Part shown: in pieces, positions 11,570 through 23,345 of the stretch | How positions within the stretch are numbered: position 1 is the first letter of the stretch | Layout: the number at the start of each line of letters is the position of its first letter | Assembly (NCBI GenBank): GCA_016930515.1 | Contig: JAFGGO010000099.1 | Span: forward strand, 1-25,526 | Direction: 5' to 3' | DNA from: Promethearchaeota archaeon | Lineage (GTDB): Archaea; Asgardarchaeota; Lokiarchaeia; Sigyniarchaeales; SOKP01 | Length of the DNA: 25,526 nt | The notes under the pieces: generated by a model | What the model saw: the letters and a program-made list of their open reading frames with translations, nothing else | Told to the model about the DNA's origin: nothing | The model's database searches: none | Translations under genes and position numbers: made by a program

Positions 11570-13090
11570 TCATGTACGGTTATCAGAAACGGCGTATTCG
11601 GCCCAACCGCGCTTCAGATCACCTTTAGTGCCCATCATTTCTTCTTTAATCCAACCATCGTAGATCTTCCACATTTGCTCTAAATTATTCGTTATTCGCA
11701 CGCCTCTCTTTAATGGGTCCTTCCTAGCATTACTATAATCTAAGAAATAAACGATATATTCAGGGAAATATCCGCTATCGCCCTTGTTTGTTTTCCACGC
11801 CATGAATTTTTTTATTGCATTATCTCCCTTGTCGTAAACGGCTTTTGCTAAAACTTTTGAAGATTTCAATTTAAGTTCTTTCACGGAGTCCGACACTTGG
11901 ATGTCTAAAAGATCTGTAATTTGACTGATTCGCACATCTTCTATGTTGGATGCATCTTTATCCGATCTAATTGGATCTGTTTCGATGAATCGAGGGTGGA
12001 TGAGCTTAACGAATGGCATTAGACGAATCATTTTCCACTCGTTGTTATCCTTATCGAAAAATAAAGACGGTTGCATGATGGGCTCTCCTTCGTGGTCCGT
12101 GATAATGTCCAAGTATTCTAATTGCCCAACTAATTGAGGCTTTACCATTTTCATGGCCCTTCCGTCTCGAGTCGTGGTGATAAAACTTCTTGATTCGATT
12201 ATTTCGAATTGAGACCAGATTTCTCTTCTTTGATCGTCTGTCAAGCCACCACCCACTCTCGTTAAAACTTGATAATTTCCATCGGGATACCTTAACGCAA
12301 CGAGGGCAGTTGCAAGTTGATTTTCTCCCAATCGAGAGTCTTGCCGACCTTCTGCGATAGCAATTATCGCAACATCAAGAGTGTGAATTGGTTTAATTTT
12401 AAGGGTAAGATGTCCTGCTCGGACGATCAATCCCTCGTGTCCACCTTTAACCACGGTTTTAAAATAATATTCCTGCAAGTCGTGTGTATTGGAAAACGAT
12501 TTCGTTCGAACAGGGGCGATCCTGCCATCTTTTTCGAATATTTCTGAAAGCTTATCATGACGTTCCCTGTATTCCTTTTCTAACCAATCTTTTCCATCTA
12601 TTTCAACCACATCAAAAACTCGAAATCCAATTCGTTCTAAATCTTCATCGGATGAAGGATTTCTCCTATAACGCATCAAATCGTATACGGTTGATCGGGC
12701 GTTAAAATCAATGGGTGTTGTCGTTGATGCGTGCATCTCTCCCATAAAGAGGGCAGACTTAATCCCTTTTTTTTTCATGATTTGCTTCATTTCGTCATTA
12801 ATAGGCAACCCGAGGAAGACCCGGTGAGTAGGCGTGTTAAAAAAGATCGATTCGTCTTTTTTTTCGTCGTAGTAATATCCTGTAAAAGCGCCATCAACTT
12901 TTACACTCGCTATGAAATTTTTTCCAGGAAGTCCTATGATGTCTTCTTCTCTTCTCGTTAAAAAGCGTTGAGTAATATTTTTTCGATAAAAATCTATTTT
13001 TTTAGCCAAATCAGAATAAGGTAGGCTTTCAGATTTGCCTCTTAAATATCCGTGGAAAGACGTCTCAATTTTATCTTTAGTTAATTTCAT
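11570..13090 (-). CDS. Compact ATP-dependent DNA ligase (NTase + OB domains) with an extra C-terminal domain
   Basis: Motif I SVKVDG (K64), III FMGEM, IIIa FRVFDVV, IV HEGLIVR, V LKIKPIHTLDVAIIA. OB domain RVGGGLTDDQR and VKPQLVGQLEY; motif VI-like HPRF. No N-terminal DNA-binding domain. Confidence 0.85.
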   Translation of the reverse strand: MKLTKDKIETSFHGYLRGKSESLPYSDLAKKIDFYRKNITQRFLTRREEDIIGLPGKNFIASVKVDGAFTGYYYDEKKDESIFFNTPTHRVFLGLPINDEMKQIMKKKGIKSALFMGEMHASTTTPIDFNARSTVYDLMRYRRNPSSDEDLERIGFRVFDVVEIDGKDWLEKEYRERHDKLSEIFEKDGRIAPVRTKSFSNTHDLQEYYFKTVVKGGHEGLIVRAGHLTLKIKPIHTLDVAIIAIAEGRQDSRLGENQLATALVALRYPDGNYQVLTRVGGGLTDDQRREIWSQFEIIESRSFITTTRDGRAMKMVKPQLVGQLEYLDIITDHEGEPIMQPSLFFDKDNNEWKMIRLMPFVKLIHPRFIETDPIRSDKDASNIEDVRISQITDLLDIQVSDSVKELKLKSSKVLAKAVYDKGDNAIKKFMAWKTNKGDSGYFPEYIVYFLDYSNARKDPLKRGVRITNNLEQMWKIYDGWIKEEMMGTKGDLKRGWAEYAVSDNRT

Positions 13091-13099
13091 CGTTTTGTG

Positions 13100-13807
13100 C
13101 TACCTCGTTTTTTTTTTCTTTGGAAGTTTTATTTCTTGATCAGAGATGTGAAGAATAAGACAATATGAATCGTCCTTTACCCTTCCCTCTAAAAATGCTC
13201 TAGGAAATTTCCTTCCACCATCGTACAGAACTAAAGGTTCCTTTTTTTTTGTATCTGAATTGTAGGCCTCAACCAATGCAAATTTACCAGATAAAAATAA
13301 TTTTTTAGCAATATCAAACAAAAATTTATAGGAAGCTCCATCGTAATGAGTGATAAAATAACTCTTACGAAACACATAATTCACAAGTAAATCCTTAGGC
13401 TCGAATAATTCTTCGGTTATCCTAACTGGTAGTGTCCCATGAACATTTCCTGTTGATCGTTCGTGTGGTCTCTCCTGTTTTTTTCCATCGGGTCTTATAA
13501 TCACATCAAAAGACTTGAAATTATACACGGGATCGTAGTTATCTTTTACTGCGATTCTCGAAGTCGACTTGATATACCTCCCCGTCGTGTTTGGATCTAC
13601 ATCCACATCTTCATCCTTGAGTTTTTTCACGAGGTCAGGCTCCTCAAGAAGTTTTTCATCAGATTTTTCTCGATCAAAAATTAGATACCTTTTACTATCG
13701 ACCTTTTTTCCATCAGGACTCAACCTAAAATATTTCTTTGTCCCGTGAGTGGGAATCAGTTCCAAGTTCTTTGCGTCAATCTTTTCGTAAGCCAAATATA
13801 TTTTCAT
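13100..13807 (-). CDS. Hypothetical protein, putative divergent Ku core domain (Ku-like B)
   Basis: VRITEELFEPKDLLVNYVFRKSYFITHYDGASYKFLFDIAKKLFLSGKFALV...YCLILHISDQEIK resembles the prokaryotic Ku pattern (ieI..Fv...eidp.YF.rsYyl.p.....kay.LLr.aL..sgk.aia...l.l..l.y.dEvr). Basic C-tail. GAGGTGA SD upstream. Confidence refers to the Ku call; the ORF itself is secure. Confidence 0.6.
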   Translation of the reverse strand: MKIYLAYEKIDAKNLELIPTHGTKKYFRLSPDGKKVDSKRYLIFDREKSDEKLLEEPDLVKKLKDEDVDVDPNTTGRYIKSTSRIAVKDNYDPVYNFKSFDVIIRPDGKKQERPHERSTGNVHGTLPVRITEELFEPKDLLVNYVFRKSYFITHYDGASYKFLFDIAKKLFLSGKFALVEAYNSDTKKKEPLVLYDGGRKFPRAFLEGRVKDDSYCLILHISDQEIKLPKKKKTR

Positions 13808-13816
13808 TTCTTCTTA

Positions 13817-13823
13817 TCACCTC
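13817..13823 (-). promoter_or_regulatory. Shine-Dalgarno GAGGTGA overlapping the stop codon of the upstream gene
   Basis: Minus strand reads TGAGGTGATAAGAAGAAATG. Similar GAGGT(G) motifs precede the ligase (13102-13106) and rad50 (17261-17266). Confidence 0.7.
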
Positions 13824-14421
13824 ACCACACATCAAATTCGGGTTCTTCTTCCTCTTCTTCGTCATAATACAATATTTCTTGCGGTTTTAACATTACTGGG
13901 GCGATATATTCTCCAATAGCAACAAGCAATACATCATCTTTAGGAATGAGTATTGCGTCTTTCGGATCTACCGTATCGTAATAAGCATATGTGAATTTGT
14001 ACAATTTATCTTGTTCCTCTAACAATTTTTCACAAGCTATCTTGAGATCTTGAAGATTTTCAGACTCTAAGACATACAACCTCTCAACATCATAGCAAAA
14101 ATAATCGAGTAGATTAATCGTGCTTTCGATGTTAACGGGTCCAGAATACATCGACTTGGTTTTAGGTAACTCCTTGCCATCTTCACCAACCACGATCGTT
14201 TCTTTCGTGTAAAAACCGTCTTCGTTCAAATAAGAACTTCCCATTCCGCCCGAAGGAACGACGTGGGTGCCGTCAGACGAGAGATAAGCGTTTTTAAATA
14301 TATTTCCATCGTTGTCCCTTCGCTCAATAATGATTTTTCCGTAAACATCGTCTCTCGAGAGCGCTTTCAACGAGCCCACAATGTCCTTTCCCTCTAATTG
14401 TAAGGTTAATTTTCTTGGCAT
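13822..14421 (-). CDS. Hypothetical protein, putative divergent Ku core domain (Ku-like A)
   Basis: RDNDGNIFKNAYLSSDGTHVVPSGGMGSSYLNEDGFY resembles the Ku bridge (h.kdg.ri.y.rv....g.eV....ivkgYe...g.y). VNIESTINLLDYFCYDVERLYVLE...LLEEQDKLYKF...AILIPKDDVLLV resembles the Ku core. Acidic C-tail. Confidence refers to the Ku call. Confidence 0.5.
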   Translation of the reverse strand: MPRKLTLQLEGKDIVGSLKALSRDDVYGKIIIERRDNDGNIFKNAYLSSDGTHVVPSGGMGSSYLNEDGFYTKETIVVGEDGKELPKTKSMYSGPVNIESTINLLDYFCYDVERLYVLESENLQDLKIACEKLLEEQDKLYKFTYAYYDTVDPKDAILIPKDDVLLVAIGEYIAPVMLKPQEILYYDEEEEEEPEFDVW

Positions 14422-14440
14422 TTTACATCCTCTATTTTCA

Positions 14441-14476
14441 AACTTATAAGTTCTAATTAAGGATTATTTAAAAAAA
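14441..14476 (-). promoter_or_regulatory. Candidate internal promoter (TATA-like TTTAAATA) and 12-bp palindrome upstream of the Ku-like pair
   Basis: The 121-nt gap after rad50 contains minus-strand TTTTTTTAAATA and, downstream of it, the perfect palindrome AACTTATAAGTT (14441-14452). Confidence 0.35.
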
Positions 14477-14542
14477 CAATCAGTAAAGAATTTTTAATAC
14501 TATACAAATTTCAACCTAATTTCAGATCGTTTTTAAAGCGAT

Positions 14543-17251
14543 TTAAGAATTAAGAAATTGCACGTGAGAAATTTCATCTTCGTCTTTCGAGAACTTTATG
14601 ACATTTTCAGCGCTTTCCTCAAATGTGTCGTCGTGAGATATGATAAAAAGTTGTTTGAAGCCTTTAATGTTTTGAATGCATTTAGCAAGGTTTAATCGCA
14701 CATCGGAGTCCAAATTCGTAGTTGGTTCGTCAAAAAAGGCAAAATCAGCGTTAGTTAATATTTTCAAAATCGAAAGGCGAACGGATAATGCAACTGCCAT
14801 TTGCTCGCCCCCTGATAATTGATTATATTCTTTTTCTATTTCAGGCGTGATGAGCCGCACGTTATAATCTTTTTCTAGTTTTAACTGAACGGCATCGGAA
14901 TCAGTTAGTTCCCTGTAAATTTCAGATGCTAGTTGGTTGATTTTATTGAGTAATGCTTCAGTTATTTTTGGTCCAGCTTCTTTATAAATAAGGCGGAGAG
15001 ATTCGGTGAGATCTCTTGAATAAACTAACCAAGCCCTTTGTTTTTCCAATTTCTCGAATTTTACTTGAAGGTCAACAAGGTGTTCCATTTTTTGTTCGTG
15101 TTTGAGCAAAATAGCGCCTTTTTCATCAATCTTTGTCTTCATTTGAATTGTTATTTCAAGCAAATTTTCCTTTTTAATCCTCGTCTCATTGAATTCTTCG
15201 TTGTTAAATAAGGTTAAAACATGCTTGATCTCTTTTTTGATAGAATCAAGGTTATTTTTAGTATTTTCCATGAGTTTGTTTTGTTTGGCAAGCTCTTTTT
15301 CGAGTTCGGGTACTTTATTGGCGATATTTATCGATTTTTGATACTTATTGTAATTTTCAATCGTTTTTTCTAATTCCTTTTTAACGGTCGTAAACTCTTC
15401 TGGAACATGTTTTAATTCGTTAATTTTTTTATCGAGTGGTTTTAAAATCTTCTCGAGCGGTTTTAATTCGGATAATAATTCGGTTTCTTCTTTCTGTAAT
15501 TTGGGAAGTTCAACATTAATCTTTTCTTTATAAAGTTGGTATTGCTCGATTGAGGATTTAAGTTGCTCCTTGCGATGCATGAGCTCATCGAGGCGTTTCT
15601 TCAGCTCTAATTTCAAACTAACTTTTTCTTTTAGTTCTTTAATTTGATTGATATATTCAATGTATAATTTCTTCACACTTCTTAATTCTCCCTCGTCTTC
15701 TGATAATTGCTCGATTTTCTGTTGTAAGCCCGAAATTTTTTCAATTTTTTTGTTAAATTCATTTAATTTATTTATCGTTGATTTTAGTTCTTCTTTTAAG
15801 GGTACGAGTTGTTTATGGAAGTGATCTATAAGCGAATTTCCCTCGATGTTCTTGCATTTTTCGTTCAGAAAGGGACAATTTCCTCCTTTCGAGTTTTTTA
15901 TGTTTTCTTCAAGGTGTGCAATTTCCGTATCGAGGGTGATTCTTTTTTCGTTAAGCTGATTATATTCGTTCTGGAATACCTCAAGTTGGGAATAATCGCT
16001 TCTAATTTTAGGAAGAACTTTCAATTTATCTTCCAATTCAAATTTCCTTTTATTATTTTCAAGGTGTTTTTCCTTGATTCCGTCTAAGTTTTCTTGATAT
16101 GCCATTATGGTTTTAATCTGCCCTTGTAATTCTTCGATCTTTTTCTGGATATCTTCTGATTCATTAAAATTTTCTTCTAATTTGGGAATCATATTTTTCA
16201 TACTTGAAATATCTCCAATTTGAGCACGAACCCTTTCGATTTTTGCGTTAAATTCTGTAATTCTTTTTTCTGAATTTGTTTTTTGTTCTTTAAAGGCTTG
16301 GAGTTTTAAATGATGTTCTTGAAGTTCTTTTTCTTTAATAATTAGTATCTTATGTTTAGTATGGTCTGAAAGTGCTTGTTTACAAATTTTTTCGGATTCT
16401 CTAGCTTCTAATAGATTTTTCTTGATAAGATCTGTGGTTTCTCCTTCACTTACTAATTTTTGTTCTAGTTCTTTCTGTTTAAGATCCAAATCTTTTAATT
16501 TTTCTTCCATTTTTTTTAATTTATCATGTTTTTCAGATACTTGCTTGAGCTCTTTTTCATTTGTTTCAAGATCAGATTCGAGTTTCTTAATTTCATCCTT
16601 TAATTGTTCTATTTCTTGCTCCGTTTCTTCTTTTTCCTTCAATTCTCCTTCCAATTTTCCCATTTCTACAGCTAATTCCTGAATCTCGTTCTTGAATAAA
16701 TTCACTAATTTAATCCCTTTTTCATAAATATTACGATACACATCTACATTTAAAATTGGATTAAAAAATTTCATTCGTTCAGTAGGCGTTCGGAGAAATG
16801 GTTCGGTAAAAGTCCCTTGAGGGATGCCTATGGAAGTCTCAAAAATGTTGGAAAGGTTCAAATCTTTTCTTAATGAAAATTGCGTTTTTAACCAGGCTAT
16901 AAGGTCGCTTTTATTATCTATGTTTTGAATCAAAACGCCTGTCCGAGCGTCTGATATTTCTATCGCATTATTCTGTTTCCCAATCGTCCTTTCCACGATA
17001 AAAACATCGTCGTTGAGACCCACAACCCATAATTTAATTACACCGTATTTAGGTGTTTTTCTTACGGTGGTACGCACATAAGACTTTTGATTTCCTGGAA
17101 GATAATTGAATAATACATATCCAATCATGTTTAATATCGTTGATTTTCCCGTACCGTTTTGACCGAGTAACATGTTTAAACCTTCTTGAAATTCAATAGT
17201 AGTCCTTTTATGGGTTGTGATGTTTTGTAGTTCGATTTTTTTAATCAACAT
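14543..17251 (-). CDS. rad50: Rad50/SbcC SMC-like ATPase
   Basis: Walker A GQNGTGKS, Q-loop IPQG, long coiled coils with a central CPFLNEKC, signature LSGGEQ, Walker B/D-loop FFDEPTTNLD, H-loop ISHD. Confidence 0.95.
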   Translation of the reverse strand: MLIKKIELQNITTHKRTTIEFQEGLNMLLGQNGTGKSTILNMIGYVLFNYLPGNQKSYVRTTVRKTPKYGVIKLWVVGLNDDVFIVERTIGKQNNAIEISDARTGVLIQNIDNKSDLIAWLKTQFSLRKDLNLSNIFETSIGIPQGTFTEPFLRTPTERMKFFNPILNVDVYRNIYEKGIKLVNLFKNEIQELAVEMGKLEGELKEKEETEQEIEQLKDEIKKLESDLETNEKELKQVSEKHDKLKKMEEKLKDLDLKQKELEQKLVSEGETTDLIKKNLLEARESEKICKQALSDHTKHKILIIKEKELQEHHLKLQAFKEQKTNSEKRITEFNAKIERVRAQIGDISSMKNMIPKLEENFNESEDIQKKIEELQGQIKTIMAYQENLDGIKEKHLENNKRKFELEDKLKVLPKIRSDYSQLEVFQNEYNQLNEKRITLDTEIAHLEENIKNSKGGNCPFLNEKCKNIEGNSLIDHFHKQLVPLKEELKSTINKLNEFNKKIEKISGLQQKIEQLSEDEGELRSVKKLYIEYINQIKELKEKVSLKLELKKRLDELMHRKEQLKSSIEQYQLYKEKINVELPKLQKEETELLSELKPLEKILKPLDKKINELKHVPEEFTTVKKELEKTIENYNKYQKSINIANKVPELEKELAKQNKLMENTKNNLDSIKKEIKHVLTLFNNEEFNETRIKKENLLEITIQMKTKIDEKGAILLKHEQKMEHLVDLQVKFEKLEKQRAWLVYSRDLTESLRLIYKEAGPKITEALLNKINQLASEIYRELTDSDAVQLKLEKDYNVRLITPEIEKEYNQLSGGEQMAVALSVRLSILKILTNADFAFFDEPTTNLDSDVRLNLAKCIQNIKGFKQLFIISHDDTFEESAENVIKFSKDEDEISHVQFLNS

Positions 17252-17254
17252 GCT

Positions 17255-18841
17255 TTAAAACACCTCAAAGTCAGATTCTTCATCCTCTTCTTCTCCGTCG
17301 TCTATATATAAATCCAAATCTATATCGTCAAATTCGTCATCATCGGAAAGTTCAAATCCTTCAATCCCATCTTTATCCTTAGCTTCAGTTTCTGGTTGAT
17401 TTATGATTTTAAATAATTTTTCTTTATCCTCTTCTTCTTGTTGATATGTAGAGAATACTTCTTCGATGGATTCGAAGTCTTTTATATTAAGTTTGACCCA
17501 TTCTTTAATTTGATTTCGTAATTTAGAATAATTTGGTTTTCTATCTGTTAATTCGGTTTTTAGATCGTCCATCAAGCCAAGTACTTTTTCTTTTATTGGG
17601 GAGAACTTCTGATTCTCTTCTACCAAGGCTAAGAAGATTTCCCGTTCTATTTCATCAATGGTCAAATCAGTACCAGATGTTTTTATGGTATCAAGAGAAG
17701 AATATAAATCCTTGCTATATGTTCTAACGTCTAATAGCGCAAATTCGTCTAAAATCTTTTTGCGAAGCTTATTAAGGTTAATTTCTAAACGAGAATACTT
17801 TATTTCTCCTTTTATTGAAAAAACTAAAATCATCGTATCAAGATCTTCTCTTGAAAAATTAGGATTGTTTTTTTTCAATGGAATGTTGTAATTTCTAACC
17901 CGTTGAACAATCATATCAATAGCTTGATCAAAGGAGTTTGTTGACCCAATATCAATCGAGCTCATGGAATAGAAGCGCCTATTTGGAATTAGATGAGGAT
18001 CTGAAGCACCATTATCGCAGGCAATTGGTCTAATATTTCTTTTATAAAATTCCTTTCCCGTAATATTACAAATAATTGCCCCTCTAGGATATTGTAAACT
18101 CGGAATTTCGAAAATATCCGTTGTTTCTAAACTCCCTGGATTGAATATCCATGGTTCCGAAGCCGGATAAGAAAATGACCTGTGATAATGTCCTAATGCC
18201 AAATAATCAATCTTTTCACCAAGTTTCTTCAAATTATCGCTTATTTCTATACCTGGCTTTTTCTTGTCATAACCTTGAACGCCAAAGTGCATCATTAATA
18301 TGTTAAACTTTGAGGAATCGGAGTTTATTTCGTTGTAAATAGATGGAAAAAGGTTTTCAGTAAAACTTCCATAGTAGGGAAGCCCATATATATTACAATC
18401 CTTTATTTGTATCGTTCCTCCCCTGCGAGTTTCGTGTGAGTATTTTTGAAAACTCACTTTTTTCGAATTTTTATCGAATTGCCCGTTTAGTAAAATAATT
18501 AATCCCAAATCGGCCAAGAAACTCATCCACGATTGGGAAGAATATATTGGATTGTCGTGATTTCCTTCAATGCATATAATTTTTATATCTCTTTTTAACC
18601 TTTTATTACATTCAAGCTGAAAATCGGTTACAATATTATAGACTTCACTTAGGACGGACGGTCCAATCTTCTTGTTATCGAATAGATCTCCAGAGATCAG
18701 AATGAAATCCACTTCTTCCTTGATACTAAGTTCCAAAATCCATTTAAAAGCCTCGAAATAATCCCGATATCGTTCTTCAAGATTGTATTGTTTTTTCCCG
18801 AGGTGCAGGTCCGCAATGTGGATATACTTAACAGGATCCAT
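17255..18841 (-). CDS. mre11: Mre11/SbcD metallophosphoesterase nuclease with long acidic C-terminal tail
   Basis: HIADLHLG, SGDLFD, EGNHD, MMHFG, LGHYH and NPGSLE. Lies 3 nt upstream of rad50. Confidence 0.93.
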   Translation of the reverse strand: MDPVKYIHIADLHLGKKQYNLEERYRDYFEAFKWILELSIKEEVDFILISGDLFDNKKIGPSVLSEVYNIVTDFQLECNKRLKRDIKIICIEGNHDNPIYSSQSWMSFLADLGLIILLNGQFDKNSKKVSFQKYSHETRRGGTIQIKDCNIYGLPYYGSFTENLFPSIYNEINSDSSKFNILMMHFGVQGYDKKKPGIEISDNLKKLGEKIDYLALGHYHRSFSYPASEPWIFNPGSLETTDIFEIPSLQYPRGAIICNITGKEFYKRNIRPIACDNGASDPHLIPNRRFYSMSSIDIGSTNSFDQAIDMIVQRVRNYNIPLKKNNPNFSREDLDTMILVFSIKGEIKYSRLEINLNKLRKKILDEFALLDVRTYSKDLYSSLDTIKTSGTDLTIDEIEREIFLALVEENQKFSPIKEKVLGLMDDLKTELTDRKPNYSKLRNQIKEWVKLNIKDFESIEEVFSTYQQEEEDKEKLFKIINQPETEAKDKDGIEGFELSDDDEFDDIDLDLYIDDGEEEDEESDFEVF

Positions 18842-18875: not shown

Positions 18876-21800
18876 TTATTGCCTATATCGAAATCTAATT
18901 TCTTTTTCTTGATCTTTATCATCTATTATTGTCAATTTTTTCTCTGTATTACAATAATTATATGCATATTTTCTTATTTGAGCGGCCTCTTCCATTACTT
19001 TACGATCGCTTGGTATGTTATTCAAAAACATGTCGCTCGAAATTAAAATTACCTTACATTTTGCTCGAGATGTTAGAACATTAAATCGATTAAGATTATA
19101 AATAAATTCAACTTCAGCGTTGAGTTGATCCTTATCGGATAAACCAATTGAGGCAATAATAAATTCTCGATCCGATCCTTGAAATTTTTCAACTGAATAG
19201 ACCGTATTTTTGAGTAGTTTCATTAATAAAGCAGGCTCGAGCAAGGTTTTTTTATCAATTGAATCTATCATTTTAGTATATATTTTTCGGATAATTAAGC
19301 GTCCTTGAGCGTTGTGAGGCGCAACAACACCAATTTTTTCCTTCCAAAAATTTTGCTCGTCTTGTTTAGTTTTGAGCTCACTCATTTTAAAATATCCAAT
19401 TACAAGTTCTGAAACCATTTCAGCTTCTAATGTACTCACTCCTATCTCGTATTTATTATCGTGAACGAGAGCACCAACTATTTTATTTGGATCCAAAACA
19501 TCCTTAATCCAAGTAGTTTTAATATTATTTAAGTTACCACCAAGTTTCAAACTTGCGTTTAATGGTGCAGCTTTTAATTTCTTATAAACTCCCAACATTG
19601 AAGTAAATTTCACAATTGCCTTGTTAGATCTGTAATTAACTTGGAGTTGACGGCTAGGAATTGAATGTGCTTGAACATAATAACCAAACAAGCTTTGCAG
19701 GACTTTTTCTAAATTTTTTGGAGGATTTAAAGGTTGCACGGGGGGAAGTTGATTATAATCACCAACTATAATTATTTTTGTAAGTTTTGCAATTTCTTGA
19801 TTTCGATCGATTTCCAATCGGTTAATCATTGAAGCGTCTTCAATTAATTTATTTGGTTTATAGGTAATACTTGGTTTTCGGAGCTCAAGCTTAACATTTC
19901 TTACGAATTGGAGGCTCGACATGAAATAATCAACTTGTAGTTGACTTGCCTCGTCAACGATAATCAGATCGAAATAAAAGTCGGATCTTACCCTTTCTTT
20001 TAAATGATATAATTGATGAGCATTTGCGAATAAAATAAAATCCTCTTCTAAGGACTCTTCTAATGGTCTTGTTGCGGTGACCGTTCTAGATTGACCGTTT
20101 AATTTCCAAGAATATCCCTTTCTTAGCAAATCGTCCACATCCCTGCACCCTGCTTTTTTATCAACGGGTTTTTGATGTTCAGAGCGTAAAAATATTAGTT
20201 GGGTTTTTGCTGAACTTGTTGGATTTCCTGATTTATCATTGCTTTGTCGCACTTTATTTATAATAACTCGAATTGCTGCGTAGGAAAACGCAGTTACCAA
20301 GATCCTATTTTTAATACATTTCTGCTTATTTCTCTCGATATATTCGTCAATCAGGGCTGCAATTGTTTGGGATTTTCCCGTACCTGGGGGGCCTTGAATT
20401 GCAGAAATAAATTGTCCTAAAGAATTATTAATTGCTCGCGATTGAGATCTATCTGGAGGAGGTAATATTGGAGTAATTAATGGTCTCTTCAAATTATTTT
20501 TTTTCACATCGATAAGCTGAAATAGCAGTTCTGGAGCAAACAAATAGATCGAAGGCGAATTAAATACCCAACTTGAAGGCCAGCGTAGTTTAGGATTAGA
20601 TCTAACCTTCCATAAATAGGAGCGCCGACTTCCTAACCATGAAGTACCGAAGGAGTGTCTTTGGAGAAGTCCGTCTTCACGATAGAGCTTGTTTGACCAA
20701 CTATCAACAGATGTGGGATATACATACCAAGCAGTATCGTTAACATTATGAATATATTTTCTAAAGAACTTTCCCCTAGTTAATTCAGATTCAACGATAT
20801 ATCCATTGTTTTCATTGCTCCAGGTTAATTTTTTAATAATTATCTTGCATTTTTCCATGTTATTTCCTGATCTCATTCCTCTTTTATTGTCAGGAATTAA
20901 ATAGACGCGATCACCTTCGTCTATTTTCATGTTGCTCGAAAGATTTACTAAAAAGAATTGAAAGGATACCTTTTTATCAAAGTCAAGCATCTGCAAGTTA
21001 GTAACCTTACCAGCAGCTAATTTTGCAATGCTATATTCGGGATATATCGTTCGAAATCCTTCAGCTTCGGTTTCGTCCATCGCACCGAGGTATTTAGAAA
21101 ATAAGTACCATACTTGGGCTATTGGGTGGTAATGCGAATCTAAAAAAACGCTTTTTAACTTCTTATCAGTTATGACTCTTGAATGTTTTGAAACAAAACT
21201 CCCCCCCTCTCTTTGGAAGTAGGATCTCAAGTCGTTAATAGTCCTGACTTTAAACATGAGTTGCTGCTTGAGCTTTTTCTTTAATTCTTTATTTTTAGTG
21301 GGATCTTCTTCAAGAAGATAATCGTACCAGTTATTGAAATCCATATAATTGAAATGAGGAATCCAATACATCGAATTTACCTTTTTATCAAGCAGTCTTT
21401 TTGCGATTTCGTGCCAGGTGTAAGATATTATGCCTGGAATTCCAAAAATGGTCTCAGAAAACTTTTGAATGTCAAATAATTTTTTATGCTGATACGGATG
21501 GGTTACCTCCGAATCAGAAGGTTTGAATAGAGAAAGAATCGAATTTAAAGAGTTAGCCGTTTTGGGATCGTCAATGATGTATTCAAGAGTGCGCTCGAGC
21601 ATGTCTTGAAAATTGTTTAATTGTCTTGAAGACCAATAATAAAAGCTCGTTGTTGGTCCAAAAAACTTTCCAGGCTCAAAAGCTTCCACTACAACATAAT
21701 TTTCAATGATATTGCACATATCAAATATTGTACTAAGGTAATTTATCACATGTTTTGAGAACTTCGCTTCGGATTCATCAGTGTCTCCCTCGTTCACGGA

Positions 21801-23345
21801 AGCGAACTGATAAATAACAATGGTTCGCTTACGAACCCCAGTTCCATTTTTTCTTGGTTCTCCTTTAGGAAATATTAGAAATTTCTTTAGCGTGATTAAA
21901 TAATTTAAAAACAACTCTACATATTCTAAAGGTATTTTTCGGAACAAAAATGCGTTGAGCATTTCGTGTATTTCCTTGGCAGTTTTGTGGGCTTTCAATG
22001 CTTCGTCCCAAACTTGCCACCAGTTGTCAAACATTAAACTATAAGCAGAATTTGGTGATATTGAAATATATAAATAAAGACCAACACCATATACTCTTTG
22101 ATTAGCTGGATCGGTCTCAATAGCAATGTTTAAAGCGATTGATGTAAATTTAGGTATTAAATAGGCATGAACCTGCCCCATCTGAGGGGGGATGATATCG
22201 TCGTTTATAATTGCGCGAGCTTTCAAGTCTAATAGTGGTTTCTCAGAATACAATGGTTCGGGAGTATCGCCAATCTGAATGCTTTTCAAATTATTGTTCA
22301 CATCCCCTATCGTTTTCATTCCCTTTTCCATCAATTGTTGAGCAATAGAAGTAGATGTATATGGAAGCAACATTAAAGACCAATCCTCTGGAGAAGTTGA
22401 TCCATCAACTCCTAAGAATTTTTTACAATCCTCAATAAAAAAACAATAACCGCAATTAGATTGAATGTTTACTGGAATATTTGAAATATTGCAAGGTGTT
22501 TTCATCCAGAGTTTTTTAATCTCATTGATGGTCTCTATGAAGATTCTATGCGATTCGTTAAAATGGATTCCGATGGAAAGCTCGTGAATATCTTGAATAT
22601 TTTTAATCATGAGTTTGTCGTCAGTATTATAAGGAAAGATGGCGTTGTTATCGATATTTATGAAAAATTTATCAGTTAATCTTTTATGACGCAAATAATA
22701 CGAAAGCGTCCACATATAATAAAATATTTCTGTAAATTGCTTTTTCCCGATCTTTTCTTTCCTTATGTTTTTAATGTCTATTACATTTATTCCGTATCGA
22801 TTATTCAGTTCGATTTCGGGAATTGAGCGAACAGTACCCTCGGGTAAAAGCTCTTTAGTTTTTCTAGCGTTTTTTCCCTTAATTTTTTGAATCACGAGAA
22901 TATCGGGTCTTTGCCTTGCGTAATCTACAGGCACTCGATCGTTTGGATGCTTTAATTCGAATAAGTCTCGAAAAAAGGATTCGGGAATTTCAAACTCGTG
23001 TTCGAGCAAGACGAGAAAATCATCTTGAGAGCTTGAAAGCATTGAATGATAACTCAAAAATTCTTTTTCGTCTAAAAAAGATTCCGTGACACTACTATTT
23101 TGAGAGATCTCGCATTTAACATTGGTTAAACTAGTTATTTTTGAATATACTTTTTGTTCGTACTTTTTTCCAAGCTTTTCAAGGTTTTCGGATCCCCGAT
23201 ATTTTCGCTTGGGTTTTTCGAGCTCCACTATTGGATCGAACCACAAGTATGGTTTATTTCTACCAAGATCTAGAAAGAGCTGCCTTTCGCATTGTGTTTG
23301 AACATACCGGGTTAAAACCTGCTTGTTAAAATTATTCTTATCCAT
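18876..23345 (-). CDS. RecB/Cas4-like PD-(D/E)XK nuclease + RNase H-like domain + Upf1/Dna2-like SF1 helicase
   Basis: N-terminus: CERQL, RPDIL, IDIK, EIFYY, CGYCFFIEDC. Middle: NIAIETDP, LFDI, SYTW. C-terminus: QGPPGTGKS, VTAFS, IVDEASQ, VGDYNQLPP, NYRS, VAPHNAQ, VEKFQGSDRE, RFNVLTSRAK. Confidence 0.88.
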   Translation of the reverse strand: MDKNNFNKQVLTRYVQTQCERQLFLDLGRNKPYLWFDPIVELEKPKRKYRGSENLEKLGKKYEQKVYSKITSLTNVKCEISQNSSVTESFLDEKEFLSYHSMLSSSQDDFLVLLEHEFEIPESFFRDLFELKHPNDRVPVDYARQRPDILVIQKIKGKNARKTKELLPEGTVRSIPEIELNNRYGINVIDIKNIRKEKIGKKQFTEIFYYMWTLSYYLRHKRLTDKFFINIDNNAIFPYNTDDKLMIKNIQDIHELSIGIHFNESHRIFIETINEIKKLWMKTPCNISNIPVNIQSNCGYCFFIEDCKKFLGVDGSTSPEDWSLMLLPYTSTSIAQQLMEKGMKTIGDVNNNLKSIQIGDTPEPLYSEKPLLDLKARAIINDDIIPPQMGQVHAYLIPKFTSIALNIAIETDPANQRVYGVGLYLYISISPNSAYSLMFDNWWQVWDEALKAHKTAKEIHEMLNAFLFRKIPLEYVELFLNYLITLKKFLIFPKGEPRKNGTGVRKRTIVIYQFASVNEGDTDESEAKFSKHVINYLSTIFDMCNIIENYVVVEAFEPGKFFGPTTSFYYWSSRQLNNFQDMLERTLEYIIDDPKTANSLNSILSLFKPSDSEVTHPYQHKKLFDIQKFSETIFGIPGIISYTWHEIAKRLLDKKVNSMYWIPHFNYMDFNNWYDYLLEEDPTKNKELKKKLKQQLMFKVRTINDLRSYFQREGGSFVSKHSRVITDKKLKSVFLDSHYHPIAQVWYLFSKYLGAMDETEAEGFRTIYPEYSIAKLAAGKVTNLQMLDFDKKVSFQFFLVNLSSNMKIDEGDRVYLIPDNKRGMRSGNNMEKCKIIIKKLTWSNENNGYIVESELTRGKFFRKYIHNVNDTAWYVYPTSVDSWSNKLYREDGLLQRHSFGTSWLGSRRSYLWKVRSNPKLRWPSSWVFNSPSIYLFAPELLFQLIDVKKNNLKRPLITPILPPPDRSQSRAINNSLGQFISAIQGPPGTGKSQTIAALIDEYIERNKQKCIKNRILVTAFSYAAIRVIINKVRQSNDKSGNPTSSAKTQLIFLRSEHQKPVDKKAGCRDVDDLLRKGYSWKLNGQSRTVTATRPLEESLEEDFILFANAHQLYHLKERVRSDFYFDLIIVDEASQLQVDYFMSSLQFVRNVKLELRKPSITYKPNKLIEDASMINRLEIDRNQEIAKLTKIIIVGDYNQLPPVQPLNPPKNLEKVLQSLFGYYVQAHSIPSRQLQVNYRSNKAIVKFTSMLGVYKKLKAAPLNASLKLGGNLNNIKTTWIKDVLDPNKIVGALVHDNKYEIGVSTLEAEMVSELVIGYFKMSELKTKQDEQNFWKEKIGVVAPHNAQGRLIIRKIYTKMIDSIDKKTLLEPALLMKLLKNTVYSVEKFQGSDREFIIASIGLSDKDQLNAEVEFIYNLNRFNVLTSRAKCKVILISSDMFLNNIPSDRKVMEEAAQIRKYAYNYCNTEKKLTIIDDKDQEKEIRFRYRQ

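Follow-up and report, generated by a model that had tools for sequence, protein, structure and literature searches.

A stretch of 25,526 nucleotides (nt) from contig JAFGGO010000099.1 of a Promethearchaeota archaeon, hereafter the window and numbered along its forward strand, carries six co-oriented genes on its minus strand, in the order helicase, mre11, rad50, A, B and ligase. A preliminary description, made from the sequence alone, took the small proteins encoded by A and B for the two subunits of a prokaryotic Ku. Here we analyse the sequence families, predicted structures and genomic settings of these proteins, for which models predict a Ku-like fold and association with each other, together with the ligase encoded beside them. 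The features on which the analysis rests are as follows.

13822-14421, minus strand: gene A, for an acidic Ku-like subunit of 199 amino acids (aa) and isoelectric point (pI) 4.3, with a predicted beta-barrel, a bridge-type insert (about residues 21-94) and an acidic-aromatic C-terminal tail.
13825-13860, minus strand: C-terminal tail of A, EEEEEEPEFDVW, an acidic run followed by the family-wide motif [LMI][DE]F[GDSAE][MLIV][MLFWI].
13817-13823, minus strand: GAGGTGA, a Shine-Dalgarno-like element read from the sequence, overlapping the TGA stop of A and lying 9 nt before the ATG of B (13807-13805).
13100-13807, minus strand: gene B, for a basic subunit of 235 aa and pI 9.3, with a predicted Ku/SPOC barrel and a long insert (about residues 20-127) that is poorly resolved in the monomer model.
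11570-13090, minus strand: ATP-dependent ligase of 506 aa, with PF01068 and PF04679 above their cut-offs, adenylation and OB domains, the KVDG lysine at residue 64 and a C-terminal domain of about 130 aa.

The coordinates and the domains of the ligase confirm what had been reported of the layout, namely two adjacent open reading frames (ORFs) of 199 and 235 aa with a ligase directly downstream, whose ATG follows the stop codon of B by 9 nt. The coding end of A reads GTG TGG TGA on the minus strand, and the GAGGTGA said to overlap this stop is indeed present there; the overlap suggests translational coupling of A and B. The adenylation lysine of the ligase is intact. Its best NCBIfam model is TIGR02779, a ligase of non-homologous end joining (NHEJ), at a score below the cut-off, and its place beside A and B is that of the adjacent ligase of an NHEJ operon.

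Sequence families of A and B

Both A and B are real, conserved gene families, since their relatives are numerous and occur in conserved synteny. A word-indexed search recovered 84 relatives of B, and an exhaustive profile search recovered 275 cluster representatives of the A family. The two genes had been described as mutually divergent, which if anything understates the case: A and B have no detectable similarity to each other (BLASTP E 0.49; hhalign probability 1.7%). The idea that they are recognisable paralogs is therefore unsupported by sequence. Neither has the vWA domain of eukaryotic Ku, as was also noted earlier; at 199 and 235 aa both are too short to hold one, and Pfam finds no domain in either.

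The expectation that standard annotation would leave the pair hypothetical was largely borne out, in that NCBI names their close relatives 'hypothetical protein', with the qualification that UniRef already labels a single A-family fragment of 114 aa 'Ku domain-containing protein'. PF02735, the Ku family, is weakly matched by 2 of 45 A-family members (best E 6.5e-4), which is the joint-highest number of members matching any family and the best E-value. The curated sequence threshold of PF02735 is reached by neither A nor B. For this reason the two proteins are not assigned to PF02735, and we describe them instead as a new variant of the Ku kind that is cryptic at the level of sequence. When PDB sequences were searched with profiles built from the A and B family alignments, no Ku chain was returned and all matches were at chance level. 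One member of the A family, P0182 (294 aa), has an N-terminal extension resembling a zinc ribbon, with weak DZR and Zn_ribbon_3 matches.

Predicted folds and pairing of A and B

The evidence for a Ku fold comes from comparing predicted models with solved structures. The AlphaFold2 model of A was built from 45 sequences and has a mean predicted local distance difference test (pLDDT) score of 89, and that of B was built from 31 sequences and has a mean of 74. In Foldseek searches of solved structures, the top matches of the A model are the Ku homodimers of Bacillus subtilis and Mycobacterium tuberculosis (E 1.4e-7 to 6e-7, TM 0.50-0.53), with B. subtilis Ku 9vnq as the single best (E 1.4e-7, TM 0.53), followed by dozens of Ku80 and Ku70 chains. 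VIA, a comparison independent of Foldseek, aligns A with Ku over 161-162 residues (Z 11.3 and 10.6) and with SPOC domains over about 100 residues (Z 8-9.8). In the model, the roughly 60 additional residues aligned to Ku form an insert between barrel strands (residues 21-94, pLDDT 81-94) that aligns with Ku and would correspond to the Ku bridge. Among ESM Atlas clusters, those nearest to A are 100% PF02735, at TM 0.58-0.61 across 170-176 residues.

For the B model, the best Foldseek matches are again Ku homodimers (8v53, 9i91 and 9vnq, E 6e-5 to 4e-4), followed by Ku80. VIA places M. tuberculosis Ku at Z 11.8, Ku80 at 11.4, B. subtilis Ku at 11.0 and SPOC at 10.8, over 103-120 residues. As modelled, B combines the Ku/SPOC barrel with a long insert that is placed as in Ku but is ill-defined in the monomer model. 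Both proteins carry inserts of 70-110 residues between barrel strands and so differ from the compact, insert-free definition of SPOC, and the Ku-like core spans nearly the full length of each. The proposal that both are Ku-like is thus upheld by Foldseek and VIA, in which solved bacterial Ku homodimers are the best matches of both models, and the Ku/SPOC-barrel match whose absence had been named as grounds for rejecting the proposal is found for A and B alike. The preliminary description had placed the best match to the Ku core in the 235-aa protein; the structure and profile comparisons reverse this, A being closer than B to Ku in its predicted fold.

A model of the A+B complex reaches an ipSAE of 0.73 (median of three runs), compared with 0.00 for the best of three controls; of the 80 solved complexes used in calibration, 58 reached 0.73, as did 2 of the 110 mismatched pairs. 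The runs share at least 80% of their contacts, and the partner has a pLDDT of 75-78. The predicted interface comprises about 280 contacts and involves both the inserts (A 23-85; B 18-43 and 79-106) and the barrels (A 104-117 and 159-186; B 137-164 and 207-229), an extent that is as expected for the interlaced subunits of a Ku dimer. Part of this result may reflect likeness to known complexes, because Ku dimers have been solved. The dimerisation that characterises Ku is accordingly represented here by a predicted A-B heterodimer, and the proposed pairing gains from the complex model passing its controls and from the two genes travelling together.

The two families also differ in charge. The median pI is 4.3 for A and 9.1 for B, with 8.9 for a sample of canonical Ku, and the opposite charge of the two families holds throughout.

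Distribution, C-terminal tails and genomic partners

Relatives of B turned up in at least 460 species genomes in a pattern scan that took one genome for each species. Synteny was scored on the best 80 loci, all ORFs of which were compared with the profiles of A and B and with the enzymes encoded nearby. These loci come from Bacteroidota, Acidobacteriota, Planctomycetota, Myxococcota, Chloroflexota, Spirochaetota, Verrucomicrobiota, Fidelibacterota, Bacillota, Actinomycetota, Pseudomonadota, Patescibacteria and Promethearchaeota. In 72 of the 76 loci with room for it, A is the gene immediately upstream of B on the same strand, at a median gap of 12 nt. In 57 of 59 loci, a ligase of the same family is encoded on that strand no more than 3.5 kb away, either following B or preceding A. 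A separate gene for an archaeo-eukaryotic primase-polymerase (AEP) is present in 18 of 82 loci, mostly in Acidobacteriota, where it follows the ligase. Only A, B and the ligase are universal components of the module. In one protein, P0128 (779 aa), a ligase of this family (PF01068 and PF04679, residues 48-378) is fused to an A domain (570-779); as a single case, which could be a read-through artefact, it carries limited weight. At loci L036 (1273-2862) and L008 (6843-8573), B is preceded by an unannotated protein of 529-576 aa without a Pfam match, which may be a variant partner, or the module may be decaying there; L008 also has no ligase nearby.

The nearest relatives of A and B carry Promethearchaeota (Asgard) labels. 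Among 201 sampled genomes of this phylum, B occurs in four and A in the same four, adjacent each time, and one 49-residue A-like fragment was found elsewhere. The six Asgard sequences group as a single clan (support 100/100) in a maximum-likelihood tree of B, on a long branch that is nested in no sampled bacterial group; as the tree is unrooted, it does not allow a direction of transfer to be stated. The genome containing the window, which is 94% complete, has no match to canonical Ku (PF02735), and four of the five bacterial carriers tested likewise have none, the fifth having two. The AEP of Acidobacteriota, used as a query, has no match in the window's genome. A Pfam scan of the window ligase found no fused AEP or phosphoesterase module, the 3'-phosphoesterase not itself having been searched for.

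The C-terminal tail of A is universal among the 71 family members compared, each of which ends in the acidic run and motif given above, with F196 nearly invariant. Bacterial tails include MDFGMM, LDFAMF and LDFDLL, and Asgard tails include EFDVW, DFDIW and AFEVW. The tail of B is not conserved: it is KKKKTR in the window, acidic in other Asgard members, and basic, neutral or acidic according to lineage. The opposite acidic and basic tails noted earlier are therefore present in the window, as the acidic run of A and the KKKKTR of B, but across the families only the acidic tail of A is conserved. Some B proteins of Acidobacteriota have a C-terminal extension of 40-80 residues rich in Lys, Ala and Pro, which recalls the extended lysine-rich C-terminus of mycobacterial Ku (L010 8836-9789; L026 8815-9627; L039 8815-9645; L048 2244-3152; L066 739-1689).

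The tail of A is probably a docking peptide. Its candidate receptor is the C-terminal domain of the ligase (about residues 372-506; 11570-11975, minus strand), which is kept in every ligase associated with A and B, from Asgard archaea to Bacteroidota. It matches no named family, and a feature search of the Atlas gives only unnamed clusters. Canonical Ku uses its C-terminus to recruit and stimulate LigD in NHEJ (PMC9638933). Because of this analogy, and because A, B and the ligase are the only universal components, we infer that the tail of A docks on the ligase, probably via this private domain.

Upstream of A, the window continues with the following features.

14422-14542, minus strand: AT-rich gap of 121 nt between rad50 and A, with TTTTTTTAAATAAT about 50 nt before the ATG of A and GAGG 9 nt before it.
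14543-17251, minus strand: Rad50, 902 aa (NF003034, E 3.9e-66), immediately upstream of the gap and A.
17255-18841, minus strand: Mre11, 528 aa, ending in EEEDEESDFEVF, an acidic-aromatic tail like that of A.
17258-17293, minus strand: tail of Mre11, with SDFEVF at its end.
18876-23345, minus strand: superfamily 1 (SF1) helicase, 1489 aa (AAA_11/AAA_12), first gene of the co-oriented block.

The element TTTTTTTAAATAAT may be an archaeal TATA element, and A, B and the ligase may be transcribed separately from helicase, mre11 and rad50. Mre11-Rad50 precedes A in four loci only (the window, L004, L005 and L021), and the full order helicase-mre11-rad50-A-B-ligase recurs in L004 and L005. At L021 (3284-9533), from Chitinophagales, the order mre11-rad50-A-B-ligase is as in the Asgard loci, and in the tree its B diverges close to the base of the bacterial part. 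No Rad50 match in the genome is better than the Rad50 of the window, and the NurA homolog of the genome lies on another contig (G000:C139:10578-11456, L105), away from mre11-rad50; the usual archaeal herA-mre11-rad50-nurA arrangement is thus broken up in this genome. In this lineage, what appears to be the only recognisable Mre11-Rad50 of the genome is therefore joined to the Ku-like module, and not to herA and nurA as is usual. The tails of Mre11 in the window and in L004 (4168-5730, ending in EDFEVF) are of the same type as the PEFDVW of A, which suggests that Mre11 and A use a common docking site in this lineage. The neighbouring genes look like housekeeping genes, not like defence islands.

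Interpretation and comparison with known systems

The reading we favour, at a probability of roughly 0.65, is that A and B are the two subunits of a very divergent Ku-type complex that binds DNA ends and serves a dedicated ligase, the whole being an end-joining module. In the mechanism that we envisage, two extremely diverged Ku folds would assemble into one A-B heterodimer, which would most likely close into a Ku-type ring and thread onto the ends of double-stranded DNA. Basic B would provide most of the affinity for DNA, and the conserved C-terminal peptide of acidic A would recruit a partner. The most plausible partner is the dedicated ligase, bound by way of the C-terminal domain specific to its family. 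The three genes would together make up an end-joining module, with end processing supplied by lineage-specific neighbours, namely a stand-alone AEP in Acidobacteriota, and Mre11-Rad50 with the SF1 helicase in this Asgard lineage. The two folds, the predicted A-B interface, the synteny, the co-occurrence and the lack of a canonical Ku match in this genome come from computation, whereas the closing of a ring, the binding of DNA ends, the contact between tail and ligase and end joining itself are inferred.

Several observations weigh against this reading. Neither A nor B has a match in Pfam or NCBIfam even at E<=1. Compared by hhalign with an alignment of canonical Ku proteins from 18 planctomycete loci, A is collinear across 157 columns at an E-value (0.0023) that is suggestive and not significant, and B aligns over residues 132-184 only, at a non-significant E of 0.018. 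The Ku motifs that had been aligned by eye fare accordingly: hhalign picks out the same core segment of B, though not significantly, and the collinearity of A remains at the suggestive level. By aligned length alone B is equally near to SPOC domains and to Ku, and its insert is poorly modelled, with pLDDT below 50 at residues 67-96. Removal of the last 25 residues leaves A still acidic (family median pI 4.6), which is unusual for a subunit of a DNA-binding ring. Finally, at L008, L036 and L061 no recognisable A stands upstream of B, and at L052 A is not adjacent to B but some 640 nt upstream.

Some of these points would be accommodated if A and B formed a scaffold or adaptor of Ku/SPOC fold that binds the ligase or other proteins without encircling DNA ends, much as the Ku-like pair INTS13-INTS14 does within Integrator. 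SPOC and INTS13/INTS14 share the beta-barrel fold (Z 8-10.8) and come near to Ku for B (Z 9.5-10.8 versus 11-11.8), and the low-confidence insert of B and the strong acidity of A point the same way. We nevertheless regard such an adaptor as unlikely. A, unlike SPOC, has a Ku-type insert of about 70 residues and aligns to Ku over 161-163 residues including that insert, against about 100 for SPOC, the inserts of both proteins lie in the predicted A-B interface, and the genomic partners of the pair (ligase, primase-polymerase and Mre11-Rad50) all act on DNA ends. The two proteins could instead form separate homodimeric Ku-like rings with distinct roles that share only an operon, in keeping with the homodimeric state of canonical prokaryotic Ku (PMC12784961, PMC12784962) and with the three loci in which B has no recognisable A upstream. 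To this we give the least credence of all, given the strict adjacency and co-occurrence of A and B, the overlap of the A stop with the ribosome-binding site of B, the opposite charge of the families and the confident predicted A+B interface.

The module might also act in RNA repair or modification, or in conflict with invading nucleic acid, and not in chromosomal end joining. The ligase has a sub-threshold RNA_ligase match (E 1.2e-4), the primase of Acidobacteriota scores 29.7 bits with the AEP model of the 'TOTE conflict system', whose cut-off is 27, and the helicase and Rad50 weakly match PADLOC. A, B and the ligase themselves have no match in PADLOC, however, and the DNA-ligase adenylation and OB domains exceed their cut-offs; the housekeeping-like surroundings and the standing of the window Rad50 as the best in its genome also make a role in RNA metabolism or defence quite improbable. 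A bolder extension of the Ku-type reading, which we hold to be doubtful, is that the A-B ring is an ancient and undescribed Ku that gives end joining to phyla usually counted as Ku-less (among them Bacteroidota, Planctomycetota, Acidobacteriota and Myxococcota), with the universal tail as a docking code for the ligase domain. As Mre11 of this Asgard lineage bears a tail of the A type, the machinery of resection would be a rival of the Ku-like ring for a single docking site, which would amount to a simple prokaryotic switch between resection and direct joining.

Taking A and B as a Ku-type heterodimer, the closest known system is canonical NHEJ by a Ku homodimer (PF02735) and LigD, as in YkoV/YkoU of B. 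subtilis and Ku/LigD of M. tuberculosis (9vnq, 9i91, 8v53). Both systems have a single-domain Ku fold of about 200-240 residues without vWA, the canonical proteins being the best structural matches of A and B; both adjoin an ATP-dependent ligase and, in some lineages of the A-B module, an AEP polymerase; and in both a C-terminal arm is the likely recruiter of the ligase (PMC9638933). They differ in that A and B are two unlike subunits outside PF02735, in that their ligase, from a separate family, has a C-terminal domain of its own and lacks fused polymerase or phosphoesterase modules, and in that the putative recruiting tail of A is acidic-aromatic, not basic.

The closest prokaryotic precedent for a heterodimer is Ku3-Ku4 of Sinorhizobium meliloti, which was proposed from genetics to act as a heterodimer with LigD4; it likewise consists of two co-transcribed, unlike Ku genes with a dedicated ligase (Dupuy et al., NAR 2019, PMC6379672). 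Unlike Ku3 and Ku4, A and B cannot be recognised as Ku by sequence, and they belong to different families that extend over many phyla and Asgard archaea. Both S. meliloti proteins are reportedly recognisable, ordinary canonical Ku proteins. With eukaryotic Ku70/Ku80, the A-B pair shares the predicted character of a heterodimer of two diverged Ku-core subunits, both cores being significant Foldseek matches for A and for B, and in our comparison the pair of the window also resembles Ku70/Ku80 in its link to Mre11-Rad50. A and B lack the vWA, SAP and Ku80 C-terminal domains, and there is no correspondence of A to Ku70 or of B to Ku80, as both match Ku80 slightly better. Direct ancestry with Ku70/Ku80 is unsupported, because the pair is rare in Asgard genomes.

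In surveys that identify Ku by sequence, it is found in about one third of bacteria and in very few archaea (PMC11936186). A 2025 survey of Ku evolution, which relies on database Ku families, lists 19 sequences from archaea and makes no mention of the Asgard group (PMC11936186). We found no paper describing the A-B-ligase module; the literature search was incomplete, so its novelty is unproven. The A-B pair escapes the Pfam Ku model and NCBIfam, even though relatives of B are spread over a dozen phyla, often in genomes without a canonical Ku match. If our reading is correct, NHEJ-like repair would be more widespread than has been thought, and a heterodimeric Ku would be no eukaryotic speciality. 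The pair would also offer a small, charge-asymmetric heterodimer for studying how work is divided between Ku subunits. In this Asgard lineage, the block that unites the module with Mre11-Rad50 and a helicase would provide a natural system for studying how DNA ends are routed between resection and joining.

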